NCBI GenBank assembly: GCA_035317605.1
Contig: DATHGT010000133.1
Coordinates: 5,452-69,451, forward strand
From: Candidatus Acidiferrum sp.
GTDB lineage: Bacteria > Methylomirabilota > Methylomirabilia > Rokubacteriales > CSP1-6
Reading direction: 5' to 3'
Length of the DNA stretch: 64,000 nt
Position 1 is the stretch's first letter. Each line of letters begins with the position of its first letter. The notes below the pieces were generated by a model. The model worked only from the letters and a program-made list of their open reading frames with translations, had not been told where the DNA came from and did no database searches. This document shows positions 7,588 through 56,949 of the stretch, piece by piece. Made by a program: the position numbers and the translations under genes.

Positions 7588-7630
7588 CGCCGCTGGCCCG
7601 GCCGTCCCGATCGCGCTCGGCTTGCCATGC

Positions 7631-9118: not shown

Positions 9119-9154
9119 CGATCAGGTCAACCCGGCCGGCCAGGGGTCCCGTGG

Positions 9155-10399: not shown

Positions 10400-10433
10400 G
10401 GGTGACTGCGGCCCGCTCCCGGCGGCGCGGCCG

Positions 10434-31976: not shown

Positions 31977-33958
31977 AGGAGGCCCCGAGCCGTCAGGAAG
32001 CCGACGAGGCGGTCGTCGGCTCGGCCGTCGAGGACGTGGAACGTCCGGCGGAGCGCGGCCGGCCAAGCGGCCCGCAGCCGCGCGAGCACGGCCGGATCGA
32101 GCAACGCCTCGAGCGCCTCCGCCAGTCCGGCGGCGGAGTGCGCGAAGAGCGCGGCGTCCTTCATGTCGACCAGCGGCCCGATGTTGACGATCGCTCGATT
32201 GTCGAACACCACCGGTGGCCGGCCGAGGGCGATCGCCTCGAGGCCGGTCGTCGAATTGGTGAGCACCACCGCGTCGCTCGCGCGGATGTGTGCGTGGAGG
32301 TCGCTGTCGACGCCGAGGAGCCGCCAGCCGTGGCGCGGGCGGCCGCCGAAGAGACGCTGCACGTCGGCCGCGATGGGACAGTGATAGTGCGGCTTGAACA
32401 GGAGCACGAACTCCCCGGCTCCGTCGGCGGTGGCGCCGGCCAGCGCCTCGAGCAGGGCGAGCGAGTCGTCCCGGTCGCTGGAGCCGGCCACCAGCAGGAT
32501 GCGGCGCTCGAGGGGCAGATCAAGGCTCGCCCTCGCCTCGCGCGCGGGAGCCGCCTCGACCCTGAGCATGTTGTAGCGGACCGCGCCCACGACCTCGGAT
32601 CGCGTCTCGGGATAGCCGGTCGCCCGCATGATCTGAAGGGGCCAGTCCCCGGTCGCCAGGTAGTAGTCGGGCAGCGGCGTGTCGAGCCGGTCGTGGCCGG
32701 CGAGCGCCCGCTCGATTTCACCCTTGGCGAAGAAGAACATGAGCGTGTTCGACGACACGGTCGTGTGCTGAAAGGCGACCGTGCGGGTCGCGGTCCCCGA
32801 CGCCGCGTGCCAGATCGCGCGCTCCATGGGCTGGAACTCGCAGGGGTGCAGCACGAACGAGGGCCGGTGGGCGATCATCAGCCGACGCATGGCGGCGGCG
32901 AGCACGAGGTTCGTCGGCAGCTCGAAGCCCGTGAAGCTGCGGTCCAACTCCTCGCGCCACAGCGGCGTCACGTCCCACTCCGCGAAGTGAGCCGACAGAC
33001 GGCGCCGCAACCTCCGATAGTGCCACGTCCATCGGAGCCCATCCGCTCCGGCCAGCGCGGAGCATAGCTCGCCGACGGTGGCGAACAACAGGACCGGCAC
33101 GATCCGTCCGTGATCGAACGCCCGCCGGATGTTCCGACGGCGCCGGAGCAGGCGCCACGGCCACAGAGTGAGCAGCACCACCTGCCACATCGGCCCCCGG
33201 CTGCGCAGGGCCGGGAACACCGGCTCGAGGTTCCGCTCGCGGACGACCTCCGAGTCGGCCGCCTCGTACAGCACGGGGTATCGGCTGAACACCACCGAGC
33301 GCACCGCCGAATCCGGCCGGGGACGGCGGAGACCGATCATGGCCAGCACCAGACGGTTGCCGAGCGTCTGGATGCCCCATGCCGTGCGCATGGCCACGAA
33401 GCGCAACCAGAAATGCCTGAGACCGCTCAGCCGGGTACGAAGTCCCCGGCCGCGGGCCGGCCGTCTCGTCATCTCCTCGACCGCCAGCCCCCGCGCGCGC
33501 AGTCCGGACACCAGGCAGGCGGCCAGAGATCCGTCGACCAAGTCGAGCCGGGCACGTGGGAATCCGCGGCGGGCCAGCACCCCCTCGACCAGGAGCAGGG
33601 CGTAGAGCCGGTTGAGGAAGGGCGTCCTCAGCGGGCTCTTCTCACACGCATCGGTGAACCACCACGCGCTCGTGCCGTCCCGCTCGAGCAGCGTCAACAG
33701 CGAGGGGCCGGCCCCGATGCGCTGACGGACGGCCTCGTCGAGAAACGCGGGGTAGAGCCCGCGCAGCTGCTCGAGCGCCCGCTCGGAGACGTCCTCGACG
33801 GGAAGGACCGTGGCGCTCGCGCGGGTCAGGGCTTCGGCGAGGTGGGCCACGTAGAGGCTCGGGACGATCCCGAGGGGAAGGATCGTCACCGGACCCCGGT
33901 CCGACGGAATCCCCGCCGGATCGAGGTGATCGACGATGAGCAAGAGGGGCTCGCTCAC
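31973..33958 (-). CDS. large (661 aa) putative GT-B-like transferase of the KpsC/KpsS (capsule_synth) or TagF-like type; candidate nonulosonic-acid or polyol-phosphate transferase
   Basis: The C-terminal half has RILLVAGSSDRDD ... FVLLFKPHYHCP ... DAVVLTNSTTGLEAIALGRPPVVFDN, resembling the two-His 'KPH.H' and terminal donor-binding blocks of TagF/Capsule_synth folds. No Pfam-grade motif can be confirmed by eye. It is a remote paralog of 44359..46287. Confidence 0.4.
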   Translation of the reverse strand: MSEPLLLIVDHLDPAGIPSDRGPVTILPLGIVPSLYVAHLAEALTRASATVLPVEDVSERALEQLRGLYPAFLDEAVRQRIGAGPSLLTLLERDGTSAWWFTDACEKSPLRTPFLNRLYALLLVEGVLARRGFPRARLDLVDGSLAACLVSGLRARGLAVEEMTRRPARGRGLRTRLSGLRHFWLRFVAMRTAWGIQTLGNRLVLAMIGLRRPRPDSAVRSVVFSRYPVLYEAADSEVVRERNLEPVFPALRSRGPMWQVVLLTLWPWRLLRRRRNIRRAFDHGRIVPVLLFATVGELCSALAGADGLRWTWHYRRLRRRLSAHFAEWDVTPLWREELDRSFTGFELPTNLVLAAAMRRLMIAHRPSFVLHPCEFQPMERAIWHAASGTATRTVAFQHTTVSSNTLMFFFAKGEIERALAGHDRLDTPLPDYYLATGDWPLQIMRATGYPETRSEVVGAVRYNMLRVEAAPAREARASLDLPLERRILLVAGSSDRDDSLALLEALAGATADGAGEFVLLFKPHYHCPIAADVQRLFGGRPRHGWRLLGVDSDLHAHIRASDAVVLTNSTTGLEAIALGRPPVVFDNRAIVNIGPLVDMKDAALFAHSAAGLAEALEALLDPAVLARLRAAWPAALRRTFHVLDGRADDRLVGFLTARGLL

Positions 33959-34599
33959 CGTTCTCCCAGACCGACGAGCGCGGCGGAGAGCGAGCGCAGG
34001 TCGTCGACGACGGTGACCTCGGCCGGGAAGGGCGAGGCGGTCCCCGGCGGCACGCGCCCCACGAACGAGACTCCGGCGTCGCGGGCGCCCGTGAAGTCGC
34101 TCCAGGCGTCCCCGACCATCACCACCGTGGTCCGGTCGAACCCCGCGGTGCCGAGGATGCCGCGGATGATCTCCGCCTTGCTCGCCGGGCTGCCGAATAC
34201 CGCCTTGAAGTACGGGTCCAGACGGCGACGCGCGACGATACGCGCCAGCTCGGCGTCGGGCGTGCCCGACGCGACGTAGAGCGGCATGGGGGCGGTCTCC
34301 AGGAATTCGCGCGCGCCGTGAACGAGCGGGACCGCCACCACCTGGTCTTCGACCAGCGCGGAAAACCGCTCCCCCAGCTCGTGCTCTTCCCCGGGACCGA
34401 GGGGACGACGCAGGATCTCGCGATACGCGTAGCGGAATTTCTCGAAGCGCGAGATGCCGACGTGTCGCCGATGGTAGGCCACCACCGCTTCCGCGGCGTC
34501 CGGACCCCAGGGCGCGAAGAGCGCGCGGAACGCCTCGGTCTTGACGTCGGCCGACTCGACGATGACGCCGTCGAAGTCGAGCACGACGGCTTGAATCAC
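33955..34599 (-). CDS. HAD-superfamily phosphatase (beta-phosphoglucomutase-like subfamily IA)
   Basis: The real start is GTG 34599..34597 (VIQAVVLDFDGVIVESAD...), in a GTGA overlap with the upstream stop. HAD motif I is DFDGV and motif IV is MVGDAWSDFTGARDAG. The track ORF 33955..35400 carries 267 spurious N-terminal codons. Confidence 0.7.
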   Translation of the reverse strand: MIQAVVLDFDGVIVESADVKTEAFRALFAPWGPDAAEAVVAYHRRHVGISRFEKFRYAYREILRRPLGPGEEHELGERFSALVEDQVVAVPLVHGAREFLETAPMPLYVASGTPDAELARIVARRRLDPYFKAVFGSPASKAEIIRGILGTAGFDRTTVVMVGDAWSDFTGARDAGVSFVGRVPPGTASPFPAEVTVVDDLRSLSAALVGLGER

Positions 34600-35366
34600 A
34601 CGCTGGCTCCGCGACGCTCGTCGCCCCGGCCCGTCAGCAGGTCCGAGGGCACGCCGAGCTCGAGGCGGACGTTCTCCTCGCGGGCGTCGGCCGACCGGTG
34701 CGCCGCGAACACGGTGAAGGCGAGACGCTCGTACGGCGTCACCGCGGTACGGGAGGGGGGGCCCCAGTACCCATAGCCGACCAGCATATCGGGGCCGAGC
34801 CCGGCCAGCAGCCCGATCGCCTCGTGGACATTGAACACCACGTAGTTCGCCACTTCGGCACCCGGGTCGTCGCCCTCGAACACGATGCGCTGGCGGCTCA
34901 CCGCGGGGTCCGTCGTCCCCGCCCCATCCGTCAGCCGGAGCGACAGGATCAGGAGACCGCCCGGCGCGACGCAGGCCCACAGGCTCCGGATCGTCTCGAT
35001 CGGCGCGAGGTTCCAGTCCACGCAGCTCAACGACACCACCCACTGAAACCGCGCGGAGCCGCTCGGCGTCGTTCCCACGTCGGCACAGATGAAGGTCTGC
35101 CAGGGGCGGGCGCGGCCCTGGGCCACGGAGATAGCCTGGGGATTGACGTCGACCCCCACGTACCGATCGAGCGTGGAGAACCGCTCCTGAAGGGCCAGTC
35201 CGAGCCCGCCGGCGGCGCAGCCGGCGTCGAGCACCGAGCGGGGCGGCCCGAACCTGGCCGCGACCTGTTCGAAGACCGTCCGCTCGGAGGGATAGAACTC
35301 CTCCCAGCGGAGCCGGTGGCCTCCGTAGAACCGGGCGATCTCGTCGGTGCGATACGTCTTGTTCAT
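34596..35366 (-). CDS. class I SAM-dependent methyltransferase
   Basis: The real start is ATG 35366..35364 (MNKTYRTDEIARFYGG...) in an ATGA overlap. Motif I is VLDAGCAAGGLGLAL. Confidence 0.7.
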   Translation of the reverse strand: MNKTYRTDEIARFYGGHRLRWEEFYPSERTVFEQVAARFGPPRSVLDAGCAAGGLGLALQERFSTLDRYVGVDVNPQAISVAQGRARPWQTFICADVGTTPSGSARFQWVVSLSCVDWNLAPIETIRSLWACVAPGGLLILSLRLTDGAGTTDPAVSRQRIVFEGDDPGAEVANYVVFNVHEAIGLLAGLGPDMLVGYGYWGPPSRTAVTPYERLAFTVFAAHRSADAREENVRLELGVPSDLLTGRGDERRGASV

Positions 35367-36268
35367 TTCGCCTCGAGCCCCGCGGCCCGCTCGCGACCAC
35401 CGACGACCTCGTACATGTCGGCGAGACACTGTAGGAGCCCTTGGCCGAGATCGAGATACGAGGTGCCGACCAGCTTCTGGGCCACCTTCGGCGTGAAGGA
35501 ATAGGGAGTCAACCGATAGTGCACGTCGTCGTCGGAGACGGGCTGGAAGTGGATCTCGACGCGATTGTCGAGGATCTCGCGGATCATCTCCAGCAGCTCG
35601 GCGAACTTCATCCGGTGCGGACCCGTGATCAGGCAGTGCGTGTTCGCGAACTCGTCGGCCAGGGCCTGCACGCTGAGGCACGCCGCGTCCTTCACGTGCA
35701 CGTATTCCCGCATCTCCTCCCCCGTTCCCTGGCACACGATCCGGCCCGTGGTCAGCGCCTGGTGCAGATACCGGTAGACGCTGTTGCGCCCATCGGCACG
35801 GGGGCCGTAGACGGTCCCGTAGCGCAGGATCGTGTACCCCAGGCCGTAGCGACGCGCGTACTCTTCGATGTAGAGCTCGGCCGACTGCTTGCTACAGCGA
35901 TAGAACCCGCCGGCCCGGCTGTACACGTAGACCGTGCTCGCGTAGACGTACCGCTGGAGCTGCCGTTGCACGGCGGCCTCGAGCAGGATCGCGTTGCCCA
36001 GGACGTTCTGCTTGACCGTGTCGATGGGGCGTTCGGCCGCCGCGTCGAGATCGGCGATGCCCGCGAAGTTGTACGCGCACTGCGCCGCTTCGAGGGCGCG
36101 GTCCACGGCCACCGGATCGAGGACGTCGGCGACGATCATCTTCTGCGTCGGTCGCCGATAGGGCGACGGGGTGACGTCGAAGAGGCTGACCTGGTGGCCG
36201 GCATCGGTGAGGGCGTCGGCGACGTGGCTGCCGAGATAGCCGCTGCCCCCAAAAACGACGACGTTCAT
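35363..36268 (-). CDS. NAD-dependent epimerase/dehydratase (extended SDR)
   Basis: Start ATG 36268..36266 (MNVVVFGGSGYLGSHV...) in an ATGA overlap. YxxxK-type catalytic region YRCSK. Confidence 0.8.
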   Translation of the reverse strand: MNVVVFGGSGYLGSHVADALTDAGHQVSLFDVTPSPYRRPTQKMIVADVLDPVAVDRALEAAQCAYNFAGIADLDAAAERPIDTVKQNVLGNAILLEAAVQRQLQRYVYASTVYVYSRAGGFYRCSKQSAELYIEEYARRYGLGYTILRYGTVYGPRADGRNSVYRYLHQALTTGRIVCQGTGEEMREYVHVKDAACLSVQALADEFANTHCLITGPHRMKFAELLEMIREILDNRVEIHFQPVSDDDVHYRLTPYSFTPKVAQKLVGTSYLDLGQGLLQCLADMYEVVGGRERAAGLEAK

Positions 36269-37359
36269 CGGGCCATTCTCTGCTCGACGGCCTCCTGGAC
36301 CACCGCCTCGAGGGCGCTGACGAATCCCGCCATGATCTCGGCGTCGCCCAAGGTCACCCGAATGCAATCCTGGACCGCCGGCGCGCCGAAGGGACCTCGG
36401 ACGAGATAGCCGCGGCCGCGCAGCGCATCGACGATCACCGCCGGGCTCACGCTTCCGGGAAGCCGCACGAGCTGGAAGTTCGTCGGGCAGCCCGGCACGT
36501 CGAGACCCAGACGGGTCGCCCCCTCGCAGAGCACTCGACGGCCCTCCTCGATCTCGCGCCGGAACGCCTCACCCATCTCGGGGTGATCGAGCACGTAGCA
36601 CCCCAGACTGATCGCCACGCTGTTGACCTCGTAGGATCCGCGAACCCTCCGGACCGCGTCCACGATCCCGGGGTTCCCGGCCAGGTAGCCGAGCCGGAGC
36701 CCGGCCAGGCCGCCGACCTTGGAGAACGTCCGCGTCACGACGACGTTGTCGAACTCCGTGACCAGGGACAGGGCGGTGATGGGATGGAACGGAAAGTACG
36801 CCTCGTCGACGATGAACAGGGCGCCGACGGCGGCGGCGGCCGACGCGACCTCACGCAGCTCCGCGAGGCTGACCACGGTCCCCGTCGGCTGGTCAGGATT
36901 CGGCAGCGCGACCAGCCGGGGACGCTGCCGGACCTTCGAGATGAGCAGGTCCAGGTCCAGCCGGCGGTCGCGACCGTACGCCACCGTGTCGGGCACCGCC
37001 TGGAACATTCGCGTGTAGATGGCGTACATGGCGTAGGTCGGGTCCGGCGTGACGACCCGATCACCCGGCCGGACGTAGGCATGGAACAGCACGCGGATCG
37101 CCGCGTCGGACCCCGGCGTCAGATGAAGATGGTCGACGGGAAGCTCGAGCTCACGACTCAGACGGGCGTAGAGCGGCGAAGGATCCGGATACGCGCACAG
37201 CGTCTCCGGCGTGATCTCCGACAGCATCGCACGCACTGTCGGCTCGGGAAACGGCGTGACCCGCTCGTTCCGGTCCAGGCGCACGAAGGCCAGGCGCTCG
37301 GCCATGGCGTCGTCGACGCGGTGGATGGCGAGAAGGTGAGGATTGGGTTCCGGCCTCAT
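36265..37359 (-). CDS. class I/II PLP-dependent aminotransferase (HisC/CobD-like)
   Basis: Start ATG 37359 with a perfect AAGGAGG 6 nt upstream on the minus strand. The PLP-Lys motif is TRTFSKVGGLAGLRLGY. Confidence 0.8.
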   Translation of the reverse strand: MRPEPNPHLLAIHRVDDAMAERLAFVRLDRNERVTPFPEPTVRAMLSEITPETLCAYPDPSPLYARLSRELELPVDHLHLTPGSDAAIRVLFHAYVRPGDRVVTPDPTYAMYAIYTRMFQAVPDTVAYGRDRRLDLDLLISKVRQRPRLVALPNPDQPTGTVVSLAELREVASAAAAVGALFIVDEAYFPFHPITALSLVTEFDNVVVTRTFSKVGGLAGLRLGYLAGNPGIVDAVRRVRGSYEVNSVAISLGCYVLDHPEMGEAFRREIEEGRRVLCEGATRLGLDVPGCPTNFQLVRLPGSVSPAVIVDALRGRGYLVRGPFGAPAVQDCIRVTLGDAEIMAGFVSALEAVVQEAVEQRMAR

Positions 37360-37428
37360 GCGTCCTCCTTCATGATCGGAAAGTGACCGCGGTGCCGCGG
37401 GTCGACCCATCGCGCCGGCACGCCCGCG

Positions 37429-38361
37429 TCATGGCTCGAGCCCCTGCGCCCACTCGACCATCCTGCGTAGCCCTTCGTCGAGCGGCGTCACCGGTCGCCA
37501 GCCGAGGTCCTGCTCGGCCCGGCTGATGTCCGCGCACAGTCCGAACTGGTCGCCGATGTGGCCAGCCAGTTCCTGGACCGGGTAATCGGGCTCGCGGCCG
37601 AGGGCGACGGCCAGCCGGGAGATGAGATCGCCCACCTCCGTGCGCTCGCCGGCCCCGATGTTGTACTCGAGGGCCGGAGTGCTCGGCCGGTACAACGCCC
37701 GGAGCCACGCGTCGATCACGTCGTCGATGTAGACGAAGTCGCGGAAGCGCTTGAGCGACCCCGTGACCGGCACCGGCACACCCTGCAGCAGGTACGCGAG
37801 GTAGATGCTCGCCATGCCCTGCCGCAAGTTGCCGAGGTTCTGGCCGGGACCGTAGACGCTGAACATCCGGAAGCTCGTCACGCTCAGGCCCTCGGCCGCG
37901 GCCAGACGCAGGACATGTTCGGAGGTCAGCTTGGAGACTCCGTAGTAGGACAGCGGCACGCACGGCGCGGTCTCCCGGACCGGAAGCTCGTCGGGGCTGC
38001 CGTAGACCGCCATCGAGCTGGCGTAGATGAACCGTGGCGTGCCCTGCTCCAGGCACCAGCGAGAGAGGAGCACGGTGGAGCCGGCGTTCGCCTGGAGGTC
38101 GTAGTACGGTACCTCCGCCGAGGCGGGTCCCGAAGACTGGGCAGCCAGGTGGCACACGGCGTCGAAGCGCGGCGGCGGCACCTGGTCCAGAAAGTTGGAC
38201 CGGTCGAGATCGAGCTCGACGATCCGCGCCGCCCGCGGAACGGCGGCGCGCTGCCCGGTTCGCATGTTGTCGATCACGACCACGTCGTGGCCATCCTCGA
38301 CGAGCCGGCGCGCCAGATGGCTCCCGATGAAGCCGGCGCCGCCGGTCACGAGCACGCGCAT
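37429..38361 (-). CDS. NAD-dependent epimerase/dehydratase (UDP-sugar 4-epimerase-like)
   Basis: The real start ATG 38361..38359 (MRVLVTGGAGFIGSHLARRL) forms a TGATG overlap. YGVSK catalytic motif. Confidence 0.8.
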   Translation of the reverse strand: MRVLVTGGAGFIGSHLARRLVEDGHDVVVIDNMRTGQRAAVPRAARIVELDLDRSNFLDQVPPPRFDAVCHLAAQSSGPASAEVPYYDLQANAGSTVLLSRWCLEQGTPRFIYASSMAVYGSPDELPVRETAPCVPLSYYGVSKLTSEHVLRLAAAEGLSVTSFRMFSVYGPGQNLGNLRQGMASIYLAYLLQGVPVPVTGSLKRFRDFVYIDDVIDAWLRALYRPSTPALEYNIGAGERTEVGDLISRLAVALGREPDYPVQELAGHIGDQFGLCADISRAEQDLGWRPVTPLDEGLRRMVEWAQGLEP

Positions 38362-39464
38362 CAGCGCCCGCCTTCCCCGGCGGCCGGCGGCGAAACTCGA
38401 TAGAGCGCGGCCAGCCGGTCGTCCTTCCGGCCCAGGCGCCGGGACGCGACGTCTTCGGCGAGCCGCACCTCGCGCCCGTCCTCGGCCGACCGATAGATCG
38501 CGTTGAGCAGCCGGAGCGCCTGCGTCCCCTCCTCGAACGAGATCGGGTGGGGGCGGCCGTCGAGCAGATCGGCGACCACGTCGAGCAGGAACGGCCGGTG
38601 GCCCAGGCCATAGGCGTTGGGAAAGATCTCGGAGTGCAGCGCGCGCTCGTCCGGAGCCGGGGTGAACACGGCCAGCTCGTTGGCGGCGATGCCCTGGAGC
38701 ACGGCGGTGCCGCGCTCGGCCAGGACCGAGATCGACGCCTCGAAGTCGTCGGGGCGCGCGGCCGTGGTCACCTCGATCACGCCCAGCGCTCCGCTGGCGA
38801 ACCGGATGGTGGCCACCGCGGTGTCTTCGACCTCGATGTCGACGAGCTGGGTCGCGGTGCGCGCGTTCACCGCGTCGATGTCGCCCACGATGTAGCGCAC
38901 GAGGTCGATGTAGTGGATCCCCTGGTTGGTCAGCGCGCCGCCGTCCATGGCCCACGTCCCCCGCCACGGGTCGCGCCGGTAGTAGGCCTGGGGCCGGCAC
39001 CAGCGCACGCGCACGGTGCCGAGCACCGGACGGCCCAGCTCGCCGGAGGCGAGCGCGGCGCGGACCTTGCGCACGGCCTTGTTGTAGCGGTTCTGGTACA
39101 CGGGAAAGATCTTGACCCCCGCGCGCTCCGCCGTCCGCCTGAGCGTCTGCACGTCCTCCCAGGCCAGGGCCATGGGCTTTTCGAGGATCACGTGCTTGCC
39201 GTAGCGCTCCATCGCGTCGAGCGCGTGCTCGGGGTGCATCCCGCTCGGGGTGAGGATGTTGACGACGTCGATCTGCTCCCGGCGCAGCATCTCGTGATAG
39301 TTGGTGTAGGCGGGCACGCCGTGCTTGCGCGCGTACGCCTCCGCCCGCTCGGGCTGAAGGTCGCAGACCGCGGCCAGCCGGGCCCGCGGGAGATCGGCGA
39401 GGTGATCGGCGTGGTGACCGGCGATCCGTCCGCACCCGACGACCGCGAAGCTCAGGGGGGCCAT
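38361..39464 (-). CDS. Gfo/Idh/MocA family NAD(P)-dependent sugar oxidoreductase
   Basis: The real start ATG 39464..39462 (MAPLSFAVVGCGRIAGHHA...) forms a TGATG overlap. N-terminal Rossmann fold plus the EKP block (HVILEKPMA). Confidence 0.8.
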   Translation of the reverse strand: MAPLSFAVVGCGRIAGHHADHLADLPRARLAAVCDLQPERAEAYARKHGVPAYTNYHEMLRREQIDVVNILTPSGMHPEHALDAMERYGKHVILEKPMALAWEDVQTLRRTAERAGVKIFPVYQNRYNKAVRKVRAALASGELGRPVLGTVRVRWCRPQAYYRRDPWRGTWAMDGGALTNQGIHYIDLVRYIVGDIDAVNARTATQLVDIEVEDTAVATIRFASGALGVIEVTTAARPDDFEASISVLAERGTAVLQGIAANELAVFTPAPDERALHSEIFPNAYGLGHRPFLLDVVADLLDGRPHPISFEEGTQALRLLNAIYRSAEDGREVRLAEDVASRRLGRKDDRLAALYRVSPPAAGEGGR

Positions 39465-40210
39465 CACTTCGCGGGCTCGATACCGTGCGCGCGAAGCCAG
39501 AATTCCAGCATGGGCACCTGCCACTCGTAGTCGACGTCGAAGCCGCCCCATTGCTGGAGCGGGAAGATCTTCTGCCCCATCCACTTCTGGGGCAGCAACC
39601 CGTCGTGGAGGTGCTCCAGGCAGCGCGGCCTCACGATCGAGGTGCCCATGTCGGCGAACCAGACGTCGCCCTGGGAGTCGCGATCGCAGTTCAGGGTCGC
39701 GGGATCACCGAAGGTCTCGAAGGGGACGAACGGATGGAGCAGCCCGTCCCCGCCGATCTTGCGGGCGCGGAGCGGGCTCCACATGTTGTAGCGCGAGACG
39801 GTGACGGCCGAATCGTAGTCCGGATGCTCCCGGAGCACGTCGATCCCCTCTTCGAGAGTCTTGGCGGTGATGGTGGCCGCGTTGGCCATCAGCAGCACGA
39901 TCAGCTCGACCTCGCCCCCGTCCCGTCGGACCTCGTCGCGAATCACCTCGTAGCCGTGGACGTAGGCGTCTTCGCCCAGCGCCTGGTTCGTGGCCAGGTG
40001 GGCGGGCCGGTCGATGATCCGGGCGCCGTACTCCGTCGCGATGGCCTTCAAGCGCGGGGAGTCGGTCGAGAGGTACACGCGGTCCACGCGCTTGGCGTCG
40101 CGGGCCGCCATGAGCGGATACGCGACGAGGGGCCGGCCCAGGAGCGGAAGGACGTTCTTGCCTGGAAACCCCGAGGACCCTTCTCGTCCCAGCATCAGTG
40201 CACAGATCAC
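39464..40210 (-). CDS. acylneuraminate/CMP-sugar cytidylyltransferase family (NeuA/KdsB-like, CTP_transf_3)
   Basis: 248 aa. ICALMLGREGSSGFPGKNVLPLLGRPLVAYPL matches the sugar-binding N-terminal signature of CMP-nonulosonate/Kdo synthetases. Confidence 0.75.
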   Translation of the reverse strand: MICALMLGREGSSGFPGKNVLPLLGRPLVAYPLMAARDAKRVDRVYLSTDSPRLKAIATEYGARIIDRPAHLATNQALGEDAYVHGYEVIRDEVRRDGGEVELIVLLMANAATITAKTLEEGIDVLREHPDYDSAVTVSRYNMWSPLRARKIGGDGLLHPFVPFETFGDPATLNCDRDSQGDVWFADMGTSIVRPRCLEHLHDGLLPQKWMGQKIFPLQQWGGFDVDYEWQVPMLEFWLRAHGIEPAK

Positions 40211-40316
40211 GGTCGACCTCCTTCGTCGTCTCTCCGTTCACGGTCGAGCGCCCGTCCGGCGTCACTGTATGCGACCCGGAAGTTTTCGTCTAGCAACGGT
40301 CCCGAGTTCCGCCCGT

Positions 40317-41126
40317 TCACCGGATCGGCTCCAGCTCGTAGTACTGAAGCTTCGGAAAGTAGTTCGGGTACATGAGCGTGCCCAGCCACCACTGGGTGAG
40401 CGGGTTGACCGGCTCCGGGAACACCTGGACCCGACTCTGGTACACGATCTTCACCCGCGCGTAGCTCAGGACCTTGGAAAAGTCCGCCTCCGAGAACTCG
40501 AAGATATGGCTCTCGACGTTGGGCCACCCGTGCGGCCGGTGCGTGATTCGCGTCCGCAGCATCCACGGGATGGTCAGGAAGATCCGCCGCGCGGCGACCC
40601 GGATCAGCTCGTCGAGCGCGGCCAAGGGGCTGCGGACGTGCTCGAGGGTCTCGCAGCTGACGACGTAGTCGAACGCCTGGTCGGCGAACGGCAGACGCTC
40701 GAGGTCGGCCAGGCACGCCTGGGAACCATCGCTCCTGATCTTGCGGGCGCAGGCCAGCAGGATGTTGACCCCCACCCCTCGCTTGACGCCCAGCCGGGAC
40801 AGGAAGAATCCATCCGAGGCGGCGGCGTCGAGCACGCGCGCGTCGCCCACCGTGCCCACGCGCCGGCGCAGCATTCCGGTGAGCTCGTACAACTGGGACG
40901 CCAGGTGCAACTGCTTGAACTCTCCGTGAAGCTCCTCGTGTCCCCAGTGCCCTTCGACGATCCGCTGGCCCTCGCGGCTCCACCACTCCCGGAAGTCGAC
41001 GTCCCGCGCCAGCTTCCGGCGGTACGCGCGCGTCGCCAGCCCGTGCCACAGCCGCTCCGGCTGGAGGCCCGCGCGCGCCGCGACGCTCCGAAGTCTGTGG
41101 CGAAGCGCGGAGGCGACCGGCGTCAT
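40317..41126 (-). CDS. class I SAM-dependent methyltransferase
   Basis: The real start ATG 41126..41124 (MTPVASALRHRL...) is in an ATGA overlap. The track ORF 40317..41942 has 272 spurious N-terminal codons. Motif VLDAAASDGFFLS and the acidic motif FDYVVSCETLEH are present. Confidence 0.65.
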   Translation of the reverse strand: MTPVASALRHRLRSVAARAGLQPERLWHGLATRAYRRKLARDVDFREWWSREGQRIVEGHWGHEELHGEFKQLHLASQLYELTGMLRRRVGTVGDARVLDAAASDGFFLSRLGVKRGVGVNILLACARKIRSDGSQACLADLERLPFADQAFDYVVSCETLEHVRSPLAALDELIRVAARRIFLTIPWMLRTRITHRPHGWPNVESHIFEFSEADFSKVLSYARVKIVYQSRVQVFPEPVNPLTQWWLGTLMYPNYFPKLQYYELEPIR

Positions 41127-41974
41127 GCCCGATCTCCGCGCGGACGGTCGAGTTTCGGCCGAGGAACCGCGAGCAGTCGGGCCGTGTAGCCATGGTACTC
41201 GCCGAGGGACTGCGGAAACGCCTCCCCGGTGATGGCGACGGAGGCCACCTCGGTGCAGCCGAGCCCCTCGAACACCCGCCGGTAGTCGCGGGCGAACACG
41301 TACCCGCAATTCGCGGCCTCGAGCTCGACGACACACACGTACTTCCGCGCCACCCGCACCATGTGCCGGAAGATGGCGCGGCTGTTCGGGTGCACGTGGA
41401 TGAGGACGGCCATCGTGAAGATCACGTCCGCGCTCCCACTCTCCAGTCCGGGAAGGACGTCCTCGACGGAGCCCACGGTGATCGTGCTGACCGCGGACAC
41501 CTCGGGAAAGATCGACGGCATGTAGGCGACGGCATGGGCGTTGATCTCCACGCCGTTCAGCCGCTCGTAACCGAGCGTGAGCAGGCCGTTCAGGTTCGCT
41601 CCGCAGTTGCACCCGAGCTCGAGAATGCGATCGTGACGCGTGACGTGAGGACCCCAGAACTCGTGCAGGAACCGCACGATGTCCTGCGACTTGGCCCCGT
41701 AGGAGGCCGGGTGATTGCTGTCGGTGGTGGCGTACTCGGCGCCGTTGGTGCGGGTGCGCCAGTAGGCTTGGCACTCCGACCGGGTCATGACCCATGGCGC
41801 CGTCACGCCACGCTCCGTGATCCACTGGTTGACGCGATTCAGGCGCCGCGCGGGCAGCGACTCCCCGTGCGCGCCCACGCGATCCTGGTAGAAGAGCCAT
41901 CGTCCCAGGTGCTGTCCGAAGAACTTCTTCTGCACCTTCCACAGCCCGATTCCCGCGTCACGTGCGGTCAACAT
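41123..41974 (-). CDS. class I SAM-dependent methyltransferase
   Basis: The real start ATG 41974..41972 (MLTARDAGIG...) is 2 nt after the upstream stop. Motif I is ILELGCNCGANLNGL, followed by ADVIFTMAVLIHV. Confidence 0.7.
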   Translation of the reverse strand: MLTARDAGIGLWKVQKKFFGQHLGRWLFYQDRVGAHGESLPARRLNRVNQWITERGVTAPWVMTRSECQAYWRTRTNGAEYATTDSNHPASYGAKSQDIVRFLHEFWGPHVTRHDRILELGCNCGANLNGLLTLGYERLNGVEINAHAVAYMPSIFPEVSAVSTITVGSVEDVLPGLESGSADVIFTMAVLIHVHPNSRAIFRHMVRVARKYVCVVELEAANCGYVFARDYRRVFEGLGCTEVASVAITGEAFPQSLGEYHGYTARLLAVPRPKLDRPRGDRA

Positions 41975-41976
41975 CG

Positions 41977-43536
41977 TCACCTCTTTCCCAGCCGCCCCTG
42001 CCCATGACCCAAGCCGAGGAAGCTCAGCCCGGCGAGGGCAGGCCACAGCACCACGAGTATTCCCAGTAACGCGAAGTACAGGACCGACGCCAGAGCAAGG
42101 CCGCCGATCGTCCCCCATTCCAGCTGGACCCGCAACCAGTCGCTCGGGCCGGCGAGGATCGTCACGGCGCAGGTCCCGACCACGACGAACGCGGCGAGCC
42201 GGTCCCGGAGCCCGCGGAGATAGCTCTGGCCCAGGAACCGACTGTTCACCCACTCGTAGATTTGCCGGCTCACGAATCCCCAGCCGACGAGCTGGACGGC
42301 CACGCCGATGGCGCCCAGCCCCAGACCCGGCACCCGCGCCGTCGAAGGAGCGACGGTGAAATAGGTGATGAGCAGGTCGGGAATGGCCAGCCCCAGGCGC
42401 AGGTTCCGAAGCTGCACGGTGCGCTCGGTGGCCTTCAGGGCGGCGTCGTTGAGCTGTCCCATCGTCTGGACGACCGGGTAGAAGGCCATCACCATCAGGA
42501 CCGGCACCGCCGCGAGATATTCGGGTCCGGCCAACCACTCGACGAGCGATCGGCTGGCGAGGCTCAGCCAGCAGCTCAGCGCCAAGGCGACGAAGAACAA
42601 CGACTGGCTGAACCGCGCGTACACCCGGGCCGCCTGGACCCGGTCGCTCCCGGCCATGGCCTTGGAGATTTCCCTCCAGAAGATCGGCACGGCCGCGCCG
42701 GCGAACGTCAAGGCGAGCAAGGACCACCGAGAGGCGAGGGCGAAGTAGGCCTGCTCGGACGACCCATACGCCCGCTGCAGGATGTACGCGCTGAACCAGG
42801 ATCCGGCGCAGCCGTAGAGGTTGACCACGATCATGGGGCGCGCGTAGCGCCACCAGCGCGTCAGGTACCACCGGGAATGCTCGAACAGACGCCCGATCCA
42901 GCACTCGTCTCGCCTGATCGTGAGCAGCCACCAGGCCAGAACCGCGCACAACACCAGCGACGACCCCACGTTGACCCGGACGTAGCTGTCGAAATCCAGC
43001 TCTCCCAGCGAATGCAGCAGCAGCAGGGCGGCGACGTTCAGCCCCGCCACCGCGGCCCCGATGGCCTGGGTGCGGACGGTCAACGCCTTGCTGTCGCCCA
43101 GGCTCTGCAAGGCGATGCCCACGAAGACGAGCCAGTCGAGGATGGTCAGCCACACGATTCGATCCGGCGGTTGGGCCAGCCAGAGCCAGCCCGCGGCCCC
43201 GGTGGTCACGCCGACGCCGACCAGGATCAGCGTCAGTGCGAGCTGGCTGGCCAGACAGGCCACGTAGAGCCTCGTCAACGAACCGCTGCGGCGCTCCTGG
43301 GACGAAAAGGTGAAGAACGCGTCGTACGCGCTCAGGTCGACGACGCCGCGCACCGAGGCGGCCGTGGTCATGAGGAAGGCGTAGCTTCCGTAGGCCACCG
43401 GCCCCAGCGCCCGCGGAACGACGGTGAGCGTGATCGCCGACGCCCCCAGCTGGACGAACCTGGCCAGCAGCGTGGCCAGGTATCGATACCGGATGCTGTC
43501 GGCGAAGCTCACCGTCGGCACGACGTCCTCGGTCAT
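41977..43536 (-). CDS. Wzx-like (MOP/polysaccharide biosynthesis protein family) lipid-linked oligosaccharide flippase
   Basis: The real start ATG 43536..43534 (MTEDVVPTVSFADSIRYRYLATLL...) is in an ATGA overlap. It is about 519 aa with 12-14 TM segments. The N-terminal pattern is typical of the Polysacc_synt family. Confidence 0.7.
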   Translation of the reverse strand: MTEDVVPTVSFADSIRYRYLATLLARFVQLGASAITLTVVPRALGPVAYGSYAFLMTTAASVRGVVDLSAYDAFFTFSSQERRSGSLTRLYVACLASQLALTLILVGVGVTTGAAGWLWLAQPPDRIVWLTILDWLVFVGIALQSLGDSKALTVRTQAIGAAVAGLNVAALLLLHSLGELDFDSYVRVNVGSSLVLCAVLAWWLLTIRRDECWIGRLFEHSRWYLTRWWRYARPMIVVNLYGCAGSWFSAYILQRAYGSSEQAYFALASRWSLLALTFAGAAVPIFWREISKAMAGSDRVQAARVYARFSQSLFFVALALSCWLSLASRSLVEWLAGPEYLAAVPVLMVMAFYPVVQTMGQLNDAALKATERTVQLRNLRLGLAIPDLLITYFTVAPSTARVPGLGLGAIGVAVQLVGWGFVSRQIYEWVNSRFLGQSYLRGLRDRLAAFVVVGTCAVTILAGPSDWLRVQLEWGTIGGLALASVLYFALLGILVVLWPALAGLSFLGLGHGQGRLGKR

Positions 43537-44378
43537 ACCAGCGTCACGCCCCGTTTCGTGGCCTCGGCCCGAAAATCCTCCGGATAGGCGAAGTCGCCGA
43601 GGAACGCGTACACGCCGCGGATGTAGTCGTGGTACGCGCGGACGTGCGCGTTGTTCCGGCCGCACATCACGAACAGGGCGACCTTCTCCCGATCGGGAGG
43701 GACCACGGGCTGGCGGGGCTGGGTCGGCCGGTGCGTCGCCCGCTGGTGAAAGATCACGAGGTCACCGGCCTTGTTGGGAATGGAGACCCCGGCTCGGACG
43801 TGCCGGTCCCGCCACGCATCATCCTCCCGGCCGAGACGGCGGAGCACCGGCAACGCCGCCCGGTAGTAGAGCCGCTCGGCCACCTTCCCCACGGGCCCGT
43901 GGGCGATGAAGGGGTCGCGGCCCCGGTGCGAGCCCGGATCGACGTCGAGGCCGCCCCCGTACTCCGGGCCGTTGTCCTGGAGGTAATAGGCGACCTGGAC
44001 CATCAGGAAATCCGGCGCGAGGCTGAAGGCGTGCCCCCTGCCCTCGTGTCGAGAACTGTCCTTGTGCCAGGAGCCCTCGAAGTGATTCAGCATCGCGGAG
44101 CACTCGCGCACCACGGCGAAGTCGGGGCCGAGAAGCGTTCTCAGGACACCGAGGGTGCGATCGTGGAACAGCAGCCACCGCAGGTCGGCGTGCTGGGAGT
44201 ACACGTCGAACAGCATGGTCCCGGTATCGCCCGTCCGCCGGCGCTCCGGGGGCAGCTCGAACTTCGCCCTCAGGAGCGCGCGGGCCCGCGTCACCTCCTC
44301 GTCCGTCAGCACGTTCGGCACCAGCAGATAGCCATCGCGATCGAACGAGTCGACCTGCTCACGCGTCAGCATCGGCAC
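43533..44378 (-). CDS. phytanoyl-CoA dioxygenase (PhyH) family Fe(II)/2-oxoglutarate-dependent oxygenase, copy 2
   Basis: 281 aa. HxD motif in GSWHKDSS, and a distal His in LVIFHQRATHRP. Confidence 0.65.
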   Translation of the reverse strand: MPMLTREQVDSFDRDGYLLVPNVLTDEEVTRARALLRAKFELPPERRRTGDTGTMLFDVYSQHADLRWLLFHDRTLGVLRTLLGPDFAVVRECSAMLNHFEGSWHKDSSRHEGRGHAFSLAPDFLMVQVAYYLQDNGPEYGGGLDVDPGSHRGRDPFIAHGPVGKVAERLYYRAALPVLRRLGREDDAWRDRHVRAGVSIPNKAGDLVIFHQRATHRPTQPRQPVVPPDREKVALFVMCGRNNAHVRAYHDYIRGVYAFLGDFAYPEDFRAEATKRGVTLV

Positions 44379-53808: not shown

Positions 53809-54794
53809 CGCGCGCCCAGCTCCAGGACGGCCTCGGCCACACGGTGCGCCCCCCCGCCATCGACGAGGCTTCGGCCACGCCGACTCATCGCCTCCCGAAG
53901 GGCCGCGTCCGCGGCCAGACCGCGCAAGGCTTCGCCCACTCGTCGGCCGACGCCCTCGTCGTCGACGTCCCCCGCAAAGCGGAAGACGCCTTCCGCATCC
54001 CACGAGCGCGACTGCGGCGTCTGGTTGGGAGCCACGGCCACCAGGACCGCCGGTACGCCCATGGCGGCGAGTTCGTACGTCACTTGACCGCCTGCGCTCA
54101 GGGCCAGGTCCGCCGTCACCATCAGGTCCGCGAGGGACTTGGGATGGTGATGCACGGTCACGAGCTCCTCGGGAACACCGAGAGGCCCGCTGGCCAGAGG
54201 ACCCACCACCGCATCGATCGTCACCGCGGGCAACGCGGCGCGAACCCAGCTCAGGAACCGGCTCATCGAAGCCTTCGGATCCGCTCCTCCGACCGTCACC
54301 AGCACTCGGAGCACCGGGTGGGAGGCGGCAGGCCTTCCGTCCCGCGCGAACTCCGGACGGAGCAGCGCGTAGCGCGGCCCCAGGAGCAGCCGCGCGTCGG
54401 CCGACCCGCGGTAGGCGGAGACGCCCACGCCGGGTGCCGTGTTGACGACGACGTCGGCGGGGATCTCGCGATCGGCCAGGTCGTCGATCACGACCAGCGG
54501 GCCCGCTTGCCGCAAGCGCGCCAGGTCCTCCCTCCGGAGCTCGTAGGAGTCGGCCACGAACACCCGCGGCGCCGCTCGGTCGACTTCATCGAGCCACGAC
54601 GTGACGCCGCCTCCGTCGATCGCCTGAACCCTGAAGCCGGCGTCGGCAATGAGCGCGGCCACGGTCGGTTCCGGATTAACGACGAAGCGCGACGCCGCTC
54701 CCAGGTTGCGGAGCGTTTCCGCGAGGGTCAGGCAACGACGGACGTGTCCGAAGCCCTCCACACGACCTCCGCGCGTGACGAAGACGACGGTCAC
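53805..54794 (-). CDS. pseG: UDP-2,4-diacetamido-2,4,6-trideoxy-hexose hydrolase PseG-like (MurG-like GT-B fold)
   Basis: GTG start 54794..54792 in a GTGA overlap. VVFVTRGGRVEGFGHVRRCLTLAETL matches the PseG/SpsG N-terminal GxGHxxR signature. TVGGADPKA and the C-terminal sugar-nucleotide block are present. The upstream 374 codons of the track ORF are spurious. Confidence 0.7.
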   Translation of the reverse strand: MTVVFVTRGGRVEGFGHVRRCLTLAETLRNLGAASRFVVNPEPTVAALIADAGFRVQAIDGGGVTSWLDEVDRAAPRVFVADSYELRREDLARLRQAGPLVVIDDLADREIPADVVVNTAPGVGVSAYRGSADARLLLGPRYALLRPEFARDGRPAASHPVLRVLVTVGGADPKASMSRFLSWVRAALPAVTIDAVVGPLASGPLGVPEELVTVHHHPKSLADLMVTADLALSAGGQVTYELAAMGVPAVLVAVAPNQTPQSRSWDAEGVFRFAGDVDDEGVGRRVGEALRGLAADAALREAMSRRGRSLVDGGGAHRVAEAVLELGAR

Positions 54795-55948
54795 GCGCTT
54801 CGCGCTTCCAGGACCCGTCGAACGGTGTCCACCACGCGGTCGACGTCGGCATCGTTCAACTCGGGAAACATCGGGAGCGAGAGGATGCTCGCGTACGCGG
54901 CCTCCGCGACCGGGCATTGCCCCGGGGACGTCCCGAAGCGCTTCTGATAGAAGGGATGCAGGTGCACGGGAATGTAGTGGACGTTGACGCCGAGGCCCTC
55001 CGCCCGCAAGGCCGCGAACACGTCCGCCCGATCGGTACGCAGTCGCTGCAGACGGAGGCGCACGACGTAAAGGTGGTAGGCATGCCCAGCCGCGGGGCGG
55101 ACGGCGAGGGGGGCCAGCCAGGGCATCCCTTGGAAGGCCGCGTCGTACCGGCGGGCCAGCTGCCGCCGGCGCGCGACCCAACCCTCCAGCTTGCGGAGCT
55201 GGCTGATCCCCAGGGCGCACTGCAGGTCGGTCAAGCGGTAGTTGAATCCCAGGTCCACCATCTCGTAGAACCAGGATCCCGCGGCCTCCCGCTGTCGATG
55301 ATCGCTGGTGATGCCGTGATTGCGGAAGATCCGCATCCGCCGCGCCCGCTCCGCGTCGTTGGTGGTGATCATCCCGCCTTCGCCGGTCGTGATGTGCTTG
55401 ACGGGATGAAAGCTGAAGGTCGACAGGTCGGCGAGCGTCCCCACGGGGACGCCCGACAGGTCCCCGCCGAGCGCGTGGCAGGCGTCGGCGATCAGCACGA
55501 GCCCGTGCGCGACGGCCAACTCCCGGAGCTTCACGTAGTCGCAGGGCTGACCGGCGTAGTCCACCGCCACGATGGCTTTCGTCCGTGCCGAGAGCCGCGA
55601 CTCCACCGAGGCGGGATCCACCAGCAAGGTGTCCGGGTCGACGTCGGCGAACACCGGCGTGCCGCCCTCGTAGACGACGCAGTTCGCGCTCGCCGCGAAG
55701 GTGAGCGCGGGCACGATCACCTCGTCGCCTGCCCCGATCCCGATCGCATGGACGGCCGCGTGCAGTGCCGCGGTCCCGTTGCTGACCGCCACCGCCTCCG
55801 TCGCTCCCACGAAATCCGCGAAGGCCCGCTCGAACTGTCCCACCAGCGGCCCCGTGGTCAGGTATTCGGAGCGCAGAACGCGGACGACGGCCTCGATGTC
55901 GTCGTCGCCGAGCCACTGCCTGCCGTACGGGAGGTGCCGGTTGGTCAC
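54791..55948 (-). CDS. pseC: DegT/DnrJ/EryC1/StrS-family PLP aminotransferase (PseC-like UDP-4-keto-6-deoxy-HexNAc transaminase)
   Basis: GTG start 55948..55946 in a GTGA overlap. The N-terminus LPYGRQWLGDDDIEAV is PseC-like. The PLP-Lys region is FSFHPVKHITTGEGG. Confidence 0.85.
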   Translation of the reverse strand: MTNRHLPYGRQWLGDDDIEAVVRVLRSEYLTTGPLVGQFERAFADFVGATEAVAVSNGTAALHAAVHAIGIGAGDEVIVPALTFAASANCVVYEGGTPVFADVDPDTLLVDPASVESRLSARTKAIVAVDYAGQPCDYVKLRELAVAHGLVLIADACHALGGDLSGVPVGTLADLSTFSFHPVKHITTGEGGMITTNDAERARRMRIFRNHGITSDHRQREAAGSWFYEMVDLGFNYRLTDLQCALGISQLRKLEGWVARRRQLARRYDAAFQGMPWLAPLAVRPAAGHAYHLYVVRLRLQRLRTDRADVFAALRAEGLGVNVHYIPVHLHPFYQKRFGTSPGQCPVAEAAYASILSLPMFPELNDADVDRVVDTVRRVLEARSA

Positions 55949-56949
55949 GGATCTCGAGAGAGTGGACTCGCGTGGAGCTTGGAGACCATCTCGGCGAGCT
56001 CCTCCCGCGAGAGCCAGCGATCGTTCAGATCCGAGGAATAGCGGAAGCCTTCCGGGCACGGTTTCGCGTGTTCGTAGTGGTTCGAGTCGAACCAGTCGAA
56101 CTCGGGCCGGATCACGAACCGGTCCGGGAGTTCGGCCGTGTGATGCGCGTCGTCCTCGGGAACCATGACCTCGTGGAGCTTCTCGCCGGGTCGAATACCG
56201 ATGACTTCCGTGCGGCACTCCGGCGCCAGGGCCGCCGCCAGATCCATGATGTTCATCGACGGGATCTTGGGCACGAAGATCTCACCGCCGGTCATCCGAT
56301 CGAGGCAGTCGATCACGAACTCAACGCCCTGCGGCAGGGTCAGCCAGAATCTCGTCATGCGGGGGTCGGTGATCGGAAGGACACCCGTCTTTCGACGCCC
56401 CAGGAAAAACGGGATGACGCTGCCCCGGCTGCCCACCACGTTTCCGTACCGCACCACGGAGAAGCGCGTGTTTCGGTGTCCCGCGTAGACGTTCCCGGCC
56501 ACGAACAGCTTGTCGGAGCAGAGCTTGGTCGCCCCGTAGAGATTGATGGGGTTGGCGGCCTTGTCCGTGGAGAGGGCGACCACGCGCTCCACGCCCATGT
56601 CAATCGCCTCGTTGATGACGTTTTCCGCGCCGACGACGTTGGTCTTGACGGCCTCGAACGGGTTGTATTCGGCCGCGGGGACCTGCTTGAGGGCGGCCGT
56701 GTGGATGACGACGTCGACGCCCTGAAAGGCTCGGTGGAGGCGATCACGATCGCGGACGTCTCCGATGAAGTACCGCAGCGCGGGAAACCGACTCTCCGGG
56801 AACTCCTGCCTCATCTCGAATTGCTTGAGCTCGTCCCGGCTGAAGACGATGACTTTCCGGGGCTGATAGCGGGTCAGGACCGTCCGGACGAAGGAACGCC
56901 CGAATGAACCCGTCCCCCCCGTGATCAACACGACCTTGTCGTCGATCAT
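55945..56949 (-). CDS. pseB: UDP-N-acetylglucosamine 4,6-dehydratase (inverting), PseB/FlaA1-like (Polysacc_synt_2)
   Basis: 334 aa. KVVLITGGTGSFG, the catalytic YGATKLCSDKLF and the C-terminal extension are typical of PseB/CapD short forms. It is the first gene of the long minus-strand array. Confidence 0.85.
   Translation of the reverse strand: MIDDKVVLITGGTGSFGRSFVRTVLTRYQPRKVIVFSRDELKQFEMRQEFPESRFPALRYFIGDVRDRDRLHRAFQGVDVVIHTAALKQVPAAEYNPFEAVKTNVVGAENVINEAIDMGVERVVALSTDKAANPINLYGATKLCSDKLFVAGNVYAGHRNTRFSVVRYGNVVGSRGSVIPFFLGRRKTGVLPITDPRMTRFWLTLPQGVEFVIDCLDRMTGGEIFVPKIPSMNIMDLAAALAPECRTEVIGIRPGEKLHEVMVPEDDAHHTAELPDRFVIRPEFDWFDSNHYEHAKPCPEGFRYSSDLNDRWLSREELAEMVSKLHASPLSRDP

Follow-up and report, generated by a model that had tools for sequence, protein, structure and literature searches.

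KdoO, the Kdo 3-hydroxylase of Burkholderia and Yersinia lipopolysaccharide (LPS), is a functional precedent for the hydroxylation of an ulosonic acid. It is an Fe(II)/2-oxoglutarate (Fe/2OG) dioxygenase that hydroxylates C3, the 3-deoxy carbon, of the ulosonic acid Kdo in a surface glycan (PMC5462993). The decorations of two other sugars of the bacterial surface, the nonulosonic acids (NulOs) pseudaminic acid (Pse) and legionaminic acid, determine recognition by phage, antibodies, and lectins, and papers on Tannerella note that the enzymes modifying NulOs are largely unknown. Here, we describe a candidate for such an enzyme in a 64,000-nucleotide stretch of DNA ("the window") from contig DATHGT010000133.1 of Candidatus Acidiferrum sp. 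A minus-strand gene at 43533..44372 (hereafter, the target) encodes a 279-amino acid (aa) Fe/2OG dioxygenase of the PhyH superfamily, an assignment based upon codon-position GC, Pfam, an NCBI match, and an AlphaFold2 (AF2) model. The protein is predicted to be a soluble cytoplasmic enzyme belonging to a small PhyH clade, and the function that we consider most likely, with about an even chance of being correct, is the late hydroxylation of a (CMP-)Pse-amidine derivative.

Genes were called by codon-position GC in this window, which is 68% G+C and has long open reading frames (ORFs) in every frame. Over 43533-44378, the frame plot gave a position-3 GC of 0.87-0.91 and a position-2 GC of ~0.46, a pattern that identifies a genuine minus-strand gene, and the GC3 of the target is 0.89. 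The ORF spans 43533..44378 (minus strand) if an alternative GTG start at 44378 is counted, but the deposited 279-aa protein places the start at the ATG at 44372. The target is 100% identical to protein P0001 of an NCBI metagenome-assembled genome (MAG) of Candidatus Acidoferrum sp. Its ATG lies 14 nt inside the 3′ end of the upstream gene, encoding a putative 642-aa transferase, and its TGA shares the sequence ATGA with the start codon of the gene on the other side, which encodes a 519-aa membrane protein. These overlaps with both neighbours imply that the target is one of the genes translated from a long operon on the minus strand. We conclude that the ORF is a genuine gene. Its product has no transmembrane segment or signal sequence, and matches the Pfam PhyH model (PF05721) over residues 12-217 (model positions 1-201 of 213) with E = 1.3e-14 and 55.5 bits, compared to a cut-off of 22.

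The original prediction of a PhyH-type Fe/2OG oxygenase with an HKD...H motif is upheld by this match and by the location of all three iron ligands. Counting residues from the ATG at 44372, and scoring conservation in an alignment of 115 homologs, we located the first two ligands in H103-K104-D105 (HxD; codons at 44058..44066, minus strand) and the distal ligand at H214 (codon at 43731..43733, minus strand). H103, D105, and H214 are each invariant (115/115); in alignments with EctD and SnoK, the former pair fall on the HxD and H214 falls on the distal His. W102, Y130, Q132, N134, G203, and D204 are also invariant, and conservation reaches 99% at R31 and K230 and 94% at R211. The acidic residues D49, E90, E110, D133, D143, and D153 are conserved too. 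The target lacks an Arg ~11 residues after the distal His, which is the usual PhyH spacing. K230 (codon at 43683..43685, minus strand; kept in 114/115 homologs) is found at H+16, among the first residues of the strand that follows the His-bearing strand in the AF2 model, and R211 at H−3. Judging from its position, K230 probably binds the C5-carboxylate of 2-oxoglutarate, and would anchor this cosubstrate in place of the Arg of PhyH and EctD.

The AF2 model of the target has a pLDDT of 90.2 and a pTM of 0.87. Among the best 50 Foldseek matches in the PDB, all are PhyH-like oxygenases (E 1e-13 to 1e-11), including proline hydroxylase H11, EctD, GriE, SnoK, SnoN, EvdO1, EvdO2, HygX, and FtmOx1, with TM scores of 0.5-0.6 and 13-22% identity. 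The target therefore apparently encodes an active Fe(II)/2-oxoglutarate dioxygenase with an intact HxD...H triad. An Fe/2OG halogenase of the SyrB2/CytC3 type, which has HxA/G at this site, was ruled out by the invariant Asp105, and CytC3 scores 26 bits; the presence of HxD rather than HxA/G favours a hydroxylase-type enzyme over a halogenase.

A profile of the clade was scored against PDB sequences at E ≤ 1. SnoK (56 bits) and EctD (55 bits) were followed by H11 (41 bits), GriE (39 bits), EvdO2 and SnoN (27 bits), and human PhyH (23 bits), and KanJ was not among the matches at this threshold. Clustering with phytanoyl enzymes, which would have counted against the original prediction, was thus not observed, the human phytanoyl-CoA hydroxylase scoring under both EctD and SnoK, and the target appears to group with no characterised enzyme, notably not with phytanoyl or fatty-acyl ones. 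We rejected the transfer of a reaction type from the solved structures, as every relative is too distant. The original prediction knew of no characterised nonulosonate hydroxylase in the PhyH family; we likewise found none in the literature, the best solved relatives being EctD and SnoK at ~55 bits. The clade is small: a search of 1.84 billion representative proteins gave 69 matches at E ≤ 1e-30, rising to 568 when the threshold was relaxed to 1e-3.

The sole NCBIfam match of the target is ectoine_ThpD (TIGR02408), and EctD ranks first when the single sequence is searched against the PDB (E = 1.1e-8, 37.9 bits), as might be expected if an unrelated metabolic enzyme, such as an ectoine, phytanoyl, or fatty-acyl hydroxylase, were present in the locus by chance. 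However, the ectoine_ThpD match scores 33 bits, far under the equivalog cut-off of 336.5, and identity with ectoine hydroxylase was rejected on that ground; human PhyH, as noted, reaches 23 bits, and no ect genes were seen among the window ORFs scanned against Pfam. Furthermore, the start and stop of the target overlap both of its neighbours, and its synteny with Pse and WbuXYZ genes, described below, recurs in at least eight phyla. Because of this synteny, chance co-location is effectively excluded, and we regard an unrelated enzyme as extremely improbable.

The target belongs to a series of ~35 minus-strand genes that runs from 56949 down to 21671. The Pse core genes form a block at 52229..56949 (minus strand), identified by NCBIfam. 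PseB (55945-56949; TIGR03589, 522.5 bits vs. a cut-off of 407.75), PseC (54791-~55930; 475.3 bits vs. 423.5), and PseG (53805-~54800; 160.7 bits vs. 153.55) exceed their cut-offs, and PseI/NeuB (52762-~53800; 282-330 bits) and a PseH-like GNAT (52229-52762; 78 bits) score under theirs. Next in this Pse block is a CTP_transf_3 cytidylyltransferase fused to an aldo-keto reductase (AKR; 50589-52232, minus strand), which does not match the PseF model, and it is followed by a short-chain dehydrogenase/reductase (SDR), a methyltransferase, and then a WbuX-type N-acetyl sugar amidotransferase (47758..48960, minus strand; TIGR03573, 316 bits vs. a cut-off of 203). The associated subunits are a HisH-like glutaminase of the WbuY type (47133..47837, minus strand; TIGR01855, 219 bits; Pfam GATase) and a HisF-like WbuZ (46345..47140, minus strand, start approximate; TIGR03572 WbuZ, 276.7 bits; NF038364 AglZ/HisF2, 263 bits). 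The WbuZ score falls under its TIGR03572 cut-off of 299.7, and there is a frame change near 47130. WbuZ ends 2 kb upstream of the target, and PseB to PseI are located 8-13 kb upstream. By these matches, the nonulosonic acid array is a real one and makes up a Pse array, and the earlier placement of a coding ORF at 43533-44378 within it holds.

Support for the idea that the target acts on Pse came from the gene neighbourhoods of its orthologs. We collected 35 genome loci with the clade motif and mapped the window proteins onto them by tblastn; synteny counts cover the 24 genome loci with near-full-length orthologs, within a 10-kb radius. The genome orthologs are 31-46% identical to the target, and the closest metagenome relative (L042) is 77% identical. 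Their hosts include Blastocatellia (Acidobacteriota), Gemmataceae, Nostoc, Anabaena, Calothrix and other Cyanobacteria, Melainabacteria, Archangium, Solirubrobacterales and other Actinomycetota, Burkholderiales, Rhodoferax, and Verrucomicrobiae. HisH-HisF-WbuX genes are present in 13/24 loci, with the ortholog often immediately following WbuX, and 17/24 loci have at least one of three markers: WbuXYZ, Pse core genes, or a methyltransferase of 335 aa that is itself conserved. The ortholog often adjoins WbuX itself, as seen in Nostoc, Anabaena, Calothrix, Gemmataceae, Verrucomicrobiae, and Betaproteobacteria. Compact operons containing the dioxygenase occur in the cultured strains Anabaena cylindrica UHCC 0172, Calothrix brevissima NIES-22, and Nostoc sp. 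LEGE 12447. In the last of these, the gene order is PseB, PseC, PseF, a Pse-associated methylase (TIGR03587, 216 bits), HisH, HisF, WbuX, the dioxygenase, the 335-aa methyltransferase, a PseG/H fusion, PseI, and GT2/GT41.

The metagenome relatives have a comparable Pse/WbuX/methyltransferase context. In L042, the order is WbuX, the 335-aa methyltransferase, LIC12162 (PF27859), the dioxygenase, Wzx (weak PF01943), a methyltransferase, and a cytidylyltransferase. Neighbour joining paired the window protein with this 77% identical relative, nested in a clade tagged by WbuX or the methyltransferase, and left the actinomycete matches (L030-L041) as an outgroup without Pse/WbuX context. The synteny with amidine-modified Pse clusters suggests that the dioxygenase oxidises the Pse sugar. 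In its general form, the original prediction of oxidative tailoring of a Pse derivative is therefore backed by synteny with Pse and acetamidino genes in at least eight phyla, although its premise of two oxygenase copies proved wrong (see below).

The Pse core genes together with HisH-HisF-WbuX would make pseudaminic acid carrying an acetamidino group, usually in the company of the 335-aa methyltransferase. The latter begins with a Zn-ribbon-like CxxC...CxxC motif, keeps 45-64% identity between phyla, and is found with WbuX in nearly all cases. Legionella ORF8 and Campylobacter PtmH suggest, by analogy, that it might N-methylate the acetimidoyl group. In the Pse loci of numerous phyla, this ~335-aa SAM methyltransferase (Methyltransf_23) is encoded immediately downstream of WbuX (e.g., L016:10797-11792); homologs were recorded in L001, L003, L008, L010, L013-L018, L020, L021, L027-L029, L033, and L042-L123, the metagenome scan gave >439 matches, and the protein has no specific NCBIfam name.

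When we anchored the comparison on this methyltransferase, using 30 loci with at least 5 kb on both sides, WbuX and PseI were each present in 28, HisH/HisF in 25, and the dioxygenase in four. We had considered that the methyltransferase might be an obligate partner of the dioxygenase, the sugar being hydroxylated and then O-methylated, and rejected this since 26/30 loci lack the dioxygenase and the window lacks the methyltransferase. All-against-all ORF clustering of 25 loci with and 31 loci without the dioxygenase revealed no gene family that co-varies with it, beyond a lineage-specific small ORF. The dependency is one-sided, in that the dioxygenase usually needs the Pse-amidine module and the module does not need the dioxygenase, a pattern that marks out an enzyme of late and dispensable tailoring. 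We take the clade to be a stand-alone accessory that amidine-modified Pse clusters may or may not carry.

In a cyanobacterial-type contig without the dioxygenase (L046:9181-9990), two short ORFs occupy the place between WbuX and the 335-aa methyltransferase. The pair looks like a split (frameshifted?) SAM methyltransferase, and suggests an alternative cassette at that slot. No dioxygenase was detected in the WbuX-methyltransferase slot of L047 and L048.

We propose that the enzyme would act in the cytoplasm, using O2 and 2-oxoglutarate to hydroxylate an unactivated C-H of a (CMP-)Pse-amidine derivative. Pse has only a handful of carbons where this could happen, namely the C3 methylene, the C9 methyl, and the methyl carbon of an N-acetyl or N-acetimidoyl substituent; for attack at C3, KdoO (PMC5462993) serves as a precedent. 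Hydroxylation would precede sugar transfer and flipping, the target being co-translated with the putative transferase and flippase.

A Pse-derived substrate could also undergo a different reaction, such as N-demethylation of an N-methyl-acetimidoyl group, KanJ-like oxidative deamination, or an epimerisation, cyclisation, or desaturation of the SnoN, SnoK, or EvdO kind. Sugar-active enzymes (SnoK, SnoN, EvdO1, EvdO2, and HygX) are among the closest relatives of solved structure, the loci are rich in methyltransferases, and the SDR, AKR, and Gfo/Idh/MocA reductases of the locus could act after an oxidation. In addition, an N-methylated acetimidoyl group is known on legionaminic acid (PMC13306086). 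However, the relatives are too remote (27-56 bits; TM 0.5-0.6) for their type of reaction to be transferred, and KanJ was not matched among PDB sequences at E ≤ 1. A demethylase beside a methyltransferase would be futile, and the window keeps the dioxygenase without the conserved 335-aa methyltransferase. We therefore think an outcome other than hydroxylation unlikely.

Several observations weigh against hydroxylation of a Pse-amidine derivative. Seven of the 24 genome loci have no glycan genes within 10 kb, so that the tie of the clade to Pse loci appears strong but not universal. The orthologs of L005 and L009 (Gemmataceae) and of L022-L024, at 35-41% identity, have housekeeping genes for neighbours (RuvB, ribonucleotide reductase, FBPase), and glycan genes are absent from the surrounding 10 kb. 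Orthologs in L012, L013, and L026 have Pse genes nearby but no WbuX, so that recognition may depend on something other than the amidine. The window has no homolog of the conserved 335-aa methyltransferase; the methyltransferase that flanks WbuX there is a different one of 264 aa. We know of no Pse derivative whose formation would call for this oxidation, and the searchable literature yielded none.

A further point of this kind emerged when the window (38505-46287) was compared with L042. Downstream of the dioxygenase, identities are high (Wzx-like protein, 82%; methyltransferase, 84%; second cytidylyltransferase, 94%; Gfo/Idh/MocA, 95%), and the dioxygenase itself is 77% identical, compared to 46% for HisF, 34% for WbuX, and 25% (over 278 aa) for the transferase upstream. 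This jump in identity, near 44.4 kb and immediately upstream of the dioxygenase, indicates a recombination junction. By identity, the dioxygenase groups with the downstream block and not with WbuXYZ, and it is possible that in this lineage its substrate comes from the second pathway encoded there.

This grouping (77% with 82-95% downstream, as against 25-46% for the transferase, WbuX, and HisF) would fit an enzyme that tailors another component of the glycan. Such a component might be a different sugar, namely the product of the second cytidylyltransferase, Gfo/Idh/MocA protein, HisC-like aminotransferase, and HAD protein, or an amino-acid substituent attached by AsnB-like amidoligases. The Archangium loci (L011, L012) have an AsnB-like gene directly upstream of the dioxygenase ortholog, and the window has two AsnB-like genes. 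However, Nostoc-type operons lack the second block and carry the ortholog between WbuX and the methyltransferase in a compact Pse operon, and no non-Pse gene family co-varies with the dioxygenase. On balance, we judge that tailoring of another component deserves consideration but is rather unlikely.

The cyanobacterial loci end in large GT2/GT41 (OGT-like) proteins, which suggests protein glycosylation, and 2OG oxygenases include many protein hydroxylases. The target might then hydroxylate a protein acceptor, so as to create or tune glycosylation sites. Against this, the window locus is of the Wzx/Wzy polysaccharide type, the fold of the target matches small-molecule PhyH-type enzymes and not those of the JmjC, P4H, or AspH types, and the gene is located among sugar-precursor genes. 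We consider a protein substrate very unlikely, and hydroxylation of a (CMP-)Pse-amidine derivative remains the function that we favour.

The neighbours that are presumed to act after the dioxygenase were assigned less specifically than in the original prediction. The upstream gene (44359..46287, minus strand), which had been called a KpsC/TagF-like transferase, encodes a putative glycosyltransferase of 642 aa with an LIC12162/BFO_1060-like C-terminal part. It has no Pfam match, and its NCBIfam matches (TIGR04331, E = 4e-8, partial; NF046086; TIGR04396) are weak ones to LIC12162, BFO_1060, and surface-carbohydrate models, so that it is kept as a putative transferase, and the KpsC/TagF likeness was not confirmed. 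The downstream gene (41977..43536, minus strand) encodes a 519-aa polytopic membrane protein with ~10-12 hydrophobic segments, probably a flippase of the Wzx type. This protein has no Pfam or NCBIfam match of its own, its 82% identical homolog has a weak match to PF01943, and the earlier name of Wzx flippase is plausible but unproven.

Beyond the 519-aa protein are two methyltransferases and then the second, PseF-like cytidylyltransferase block. It begins with a stand-alone CTP_transf_3 cytidylyltransferase (39464-40210, minus strand; PseF model, 72 bits vs. a cut-off of 205.7), located 10 kb downstream of the fused one. This second sugar-like pathway block (33955-40210, minus strand) also holds a Gfo/Idh/MocA (inositol-dehydrogenase-like) protein, two SDR epimerases/dehydratases, a HisC/CobD-like class I/II aminotransferase, a methyltransferase, and a HAD hydrolase. 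Further downstream in the operon are glycosyltransferases, a heparinase II/III-like protein (30078-32066, minus strand), and two AsnB-type amidotransferases (28227-30074 and 22833-24917, both minus strand).

The target had been described as a paralog, the second PhyH-family gene inside the array, and its role was argued from the presence of two PhyH oxygenases in one glycan locus. Neither statement survived. The sole other PhyH gene in the window (10434-11390, minus strand; 318 aa; PF05721, E = 1.9e-16), with a canonical IHRD...GH...RR site, lies 32 kb from the target, outside the Pse genes and in a different sub-cluster. The two proteins are related at the superfamily level only, with a BLASTP E-value of 0.09, and a tblastn search of the window with the target found no second copy. 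The idea of a duplicated oxygenase was dropped, and the two genes are best regarded as independent members of the superfamily rather than as a duplicated pair. The 318-aa protein matches no NCBIfam model, and no PDB sequence matched it at an E-value under 0.0045. Its neighbours encode a methyltransferase (9155-10564), an MBOAT protein (7631-9121), and an AlgX-like SGNH protein (6268-7728), and the sub-cluster looks like one for O-acylation. Elsewhere, a cyanobacterial MAG (L008:11840-12841, minus strand) has a second, divergent PhyH-like ORF (PF05721, E = 6e-7), convergent to its dioxygenase-methyltransferase pair.

The PhyH family is well known, but in the searchable literature we found no description of the clade, of its occurrence in Pse-amidine loci, or of an oxygenase activity on nonulosonates, and no relevant paper joining pseudaminic or nonulosonic acid with PhyH, phytanoyl, dioxygenase, or hydroxylase. 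It is possible, though we put it forward tentatively and with some doubt, that the clade is the first bacterial nonulosonic-acid oxygenase, converting CMP-Pse-amidine to a hydroxylated nonulosonate, for instance one of the 3-hydroxy ("Ko-like"), 9-hydroxy, or N-glycol(imid)oyl type. To our knowledge, no such sugar has yet been described structurally. If the proposal is correct, a conserved oxygenase cassette on the Pse-amidine pathway would predict both a novel hydroxylated nonulosonate and a class of substrates that is new to PhyH-type enzymes, and it would give aerobic soil and freshwater Acidobacteriota, Nostocales, Gemmataceae, and Myxococcota a further optional layer of surface-sugar diversity. 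If the enzyme acts on something else, the finding shrinks to one more PhyH-family protein with no assigned role.

How does the target compare with enzymes of established function? Human phytanoyl-CoA 2-hydroxylase (PDB 2A1X), which gave the family its name, shares the Pfam family and fold, but scores 23 bits against the clade profile, and there is no sign of an acyl-CoA substrate for the target. SnoK/SnoN, EvdO1/EvdO2, and HygX are PhyH-like Fe/2OG enzymes that act on sugar moieties in antibiotic pathways. They are 16-22% identical to the target (TM 0.5-0.6), and they catalyse carbocyclisation, epimerisation, and orthoester formation on secondary-metabolite glycosides, not on cell-surface nonulosonates.

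EctD (PDB 3EMR, 4MHR, 4Q5O) has the same fold and an aligned HxD...H triad. It differs in its low identity to the target (~20%; TM 0.55), in having a 2OG-binding Arg where the target probably uses Lys230, and in its genomic setting, the target having no ect gene context. The substrate of EctD contains an amidinium and a carboxylate, and is hydroxylated at the methylene beside the carboxylate-bearing carbon; by analogy only, this chemistry resembles hydroxylation at C3 of a Pse-amidine. CMP-Neu5Ac hydroxylase (CMAH) of animals offers an analogy for attack on the N-acetyl methyl of a CMP-activated nonulosonate, although it is a Rieske iron-sulfur monooxygenase and unrelated in fold. KdoO, which is presumably not annotated as a member of the PhyH family, acts on lipid-linked Kdo2-lipid A and has no link to Pse or amidotransferase genes. 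The target is likened to it by its proposed function.

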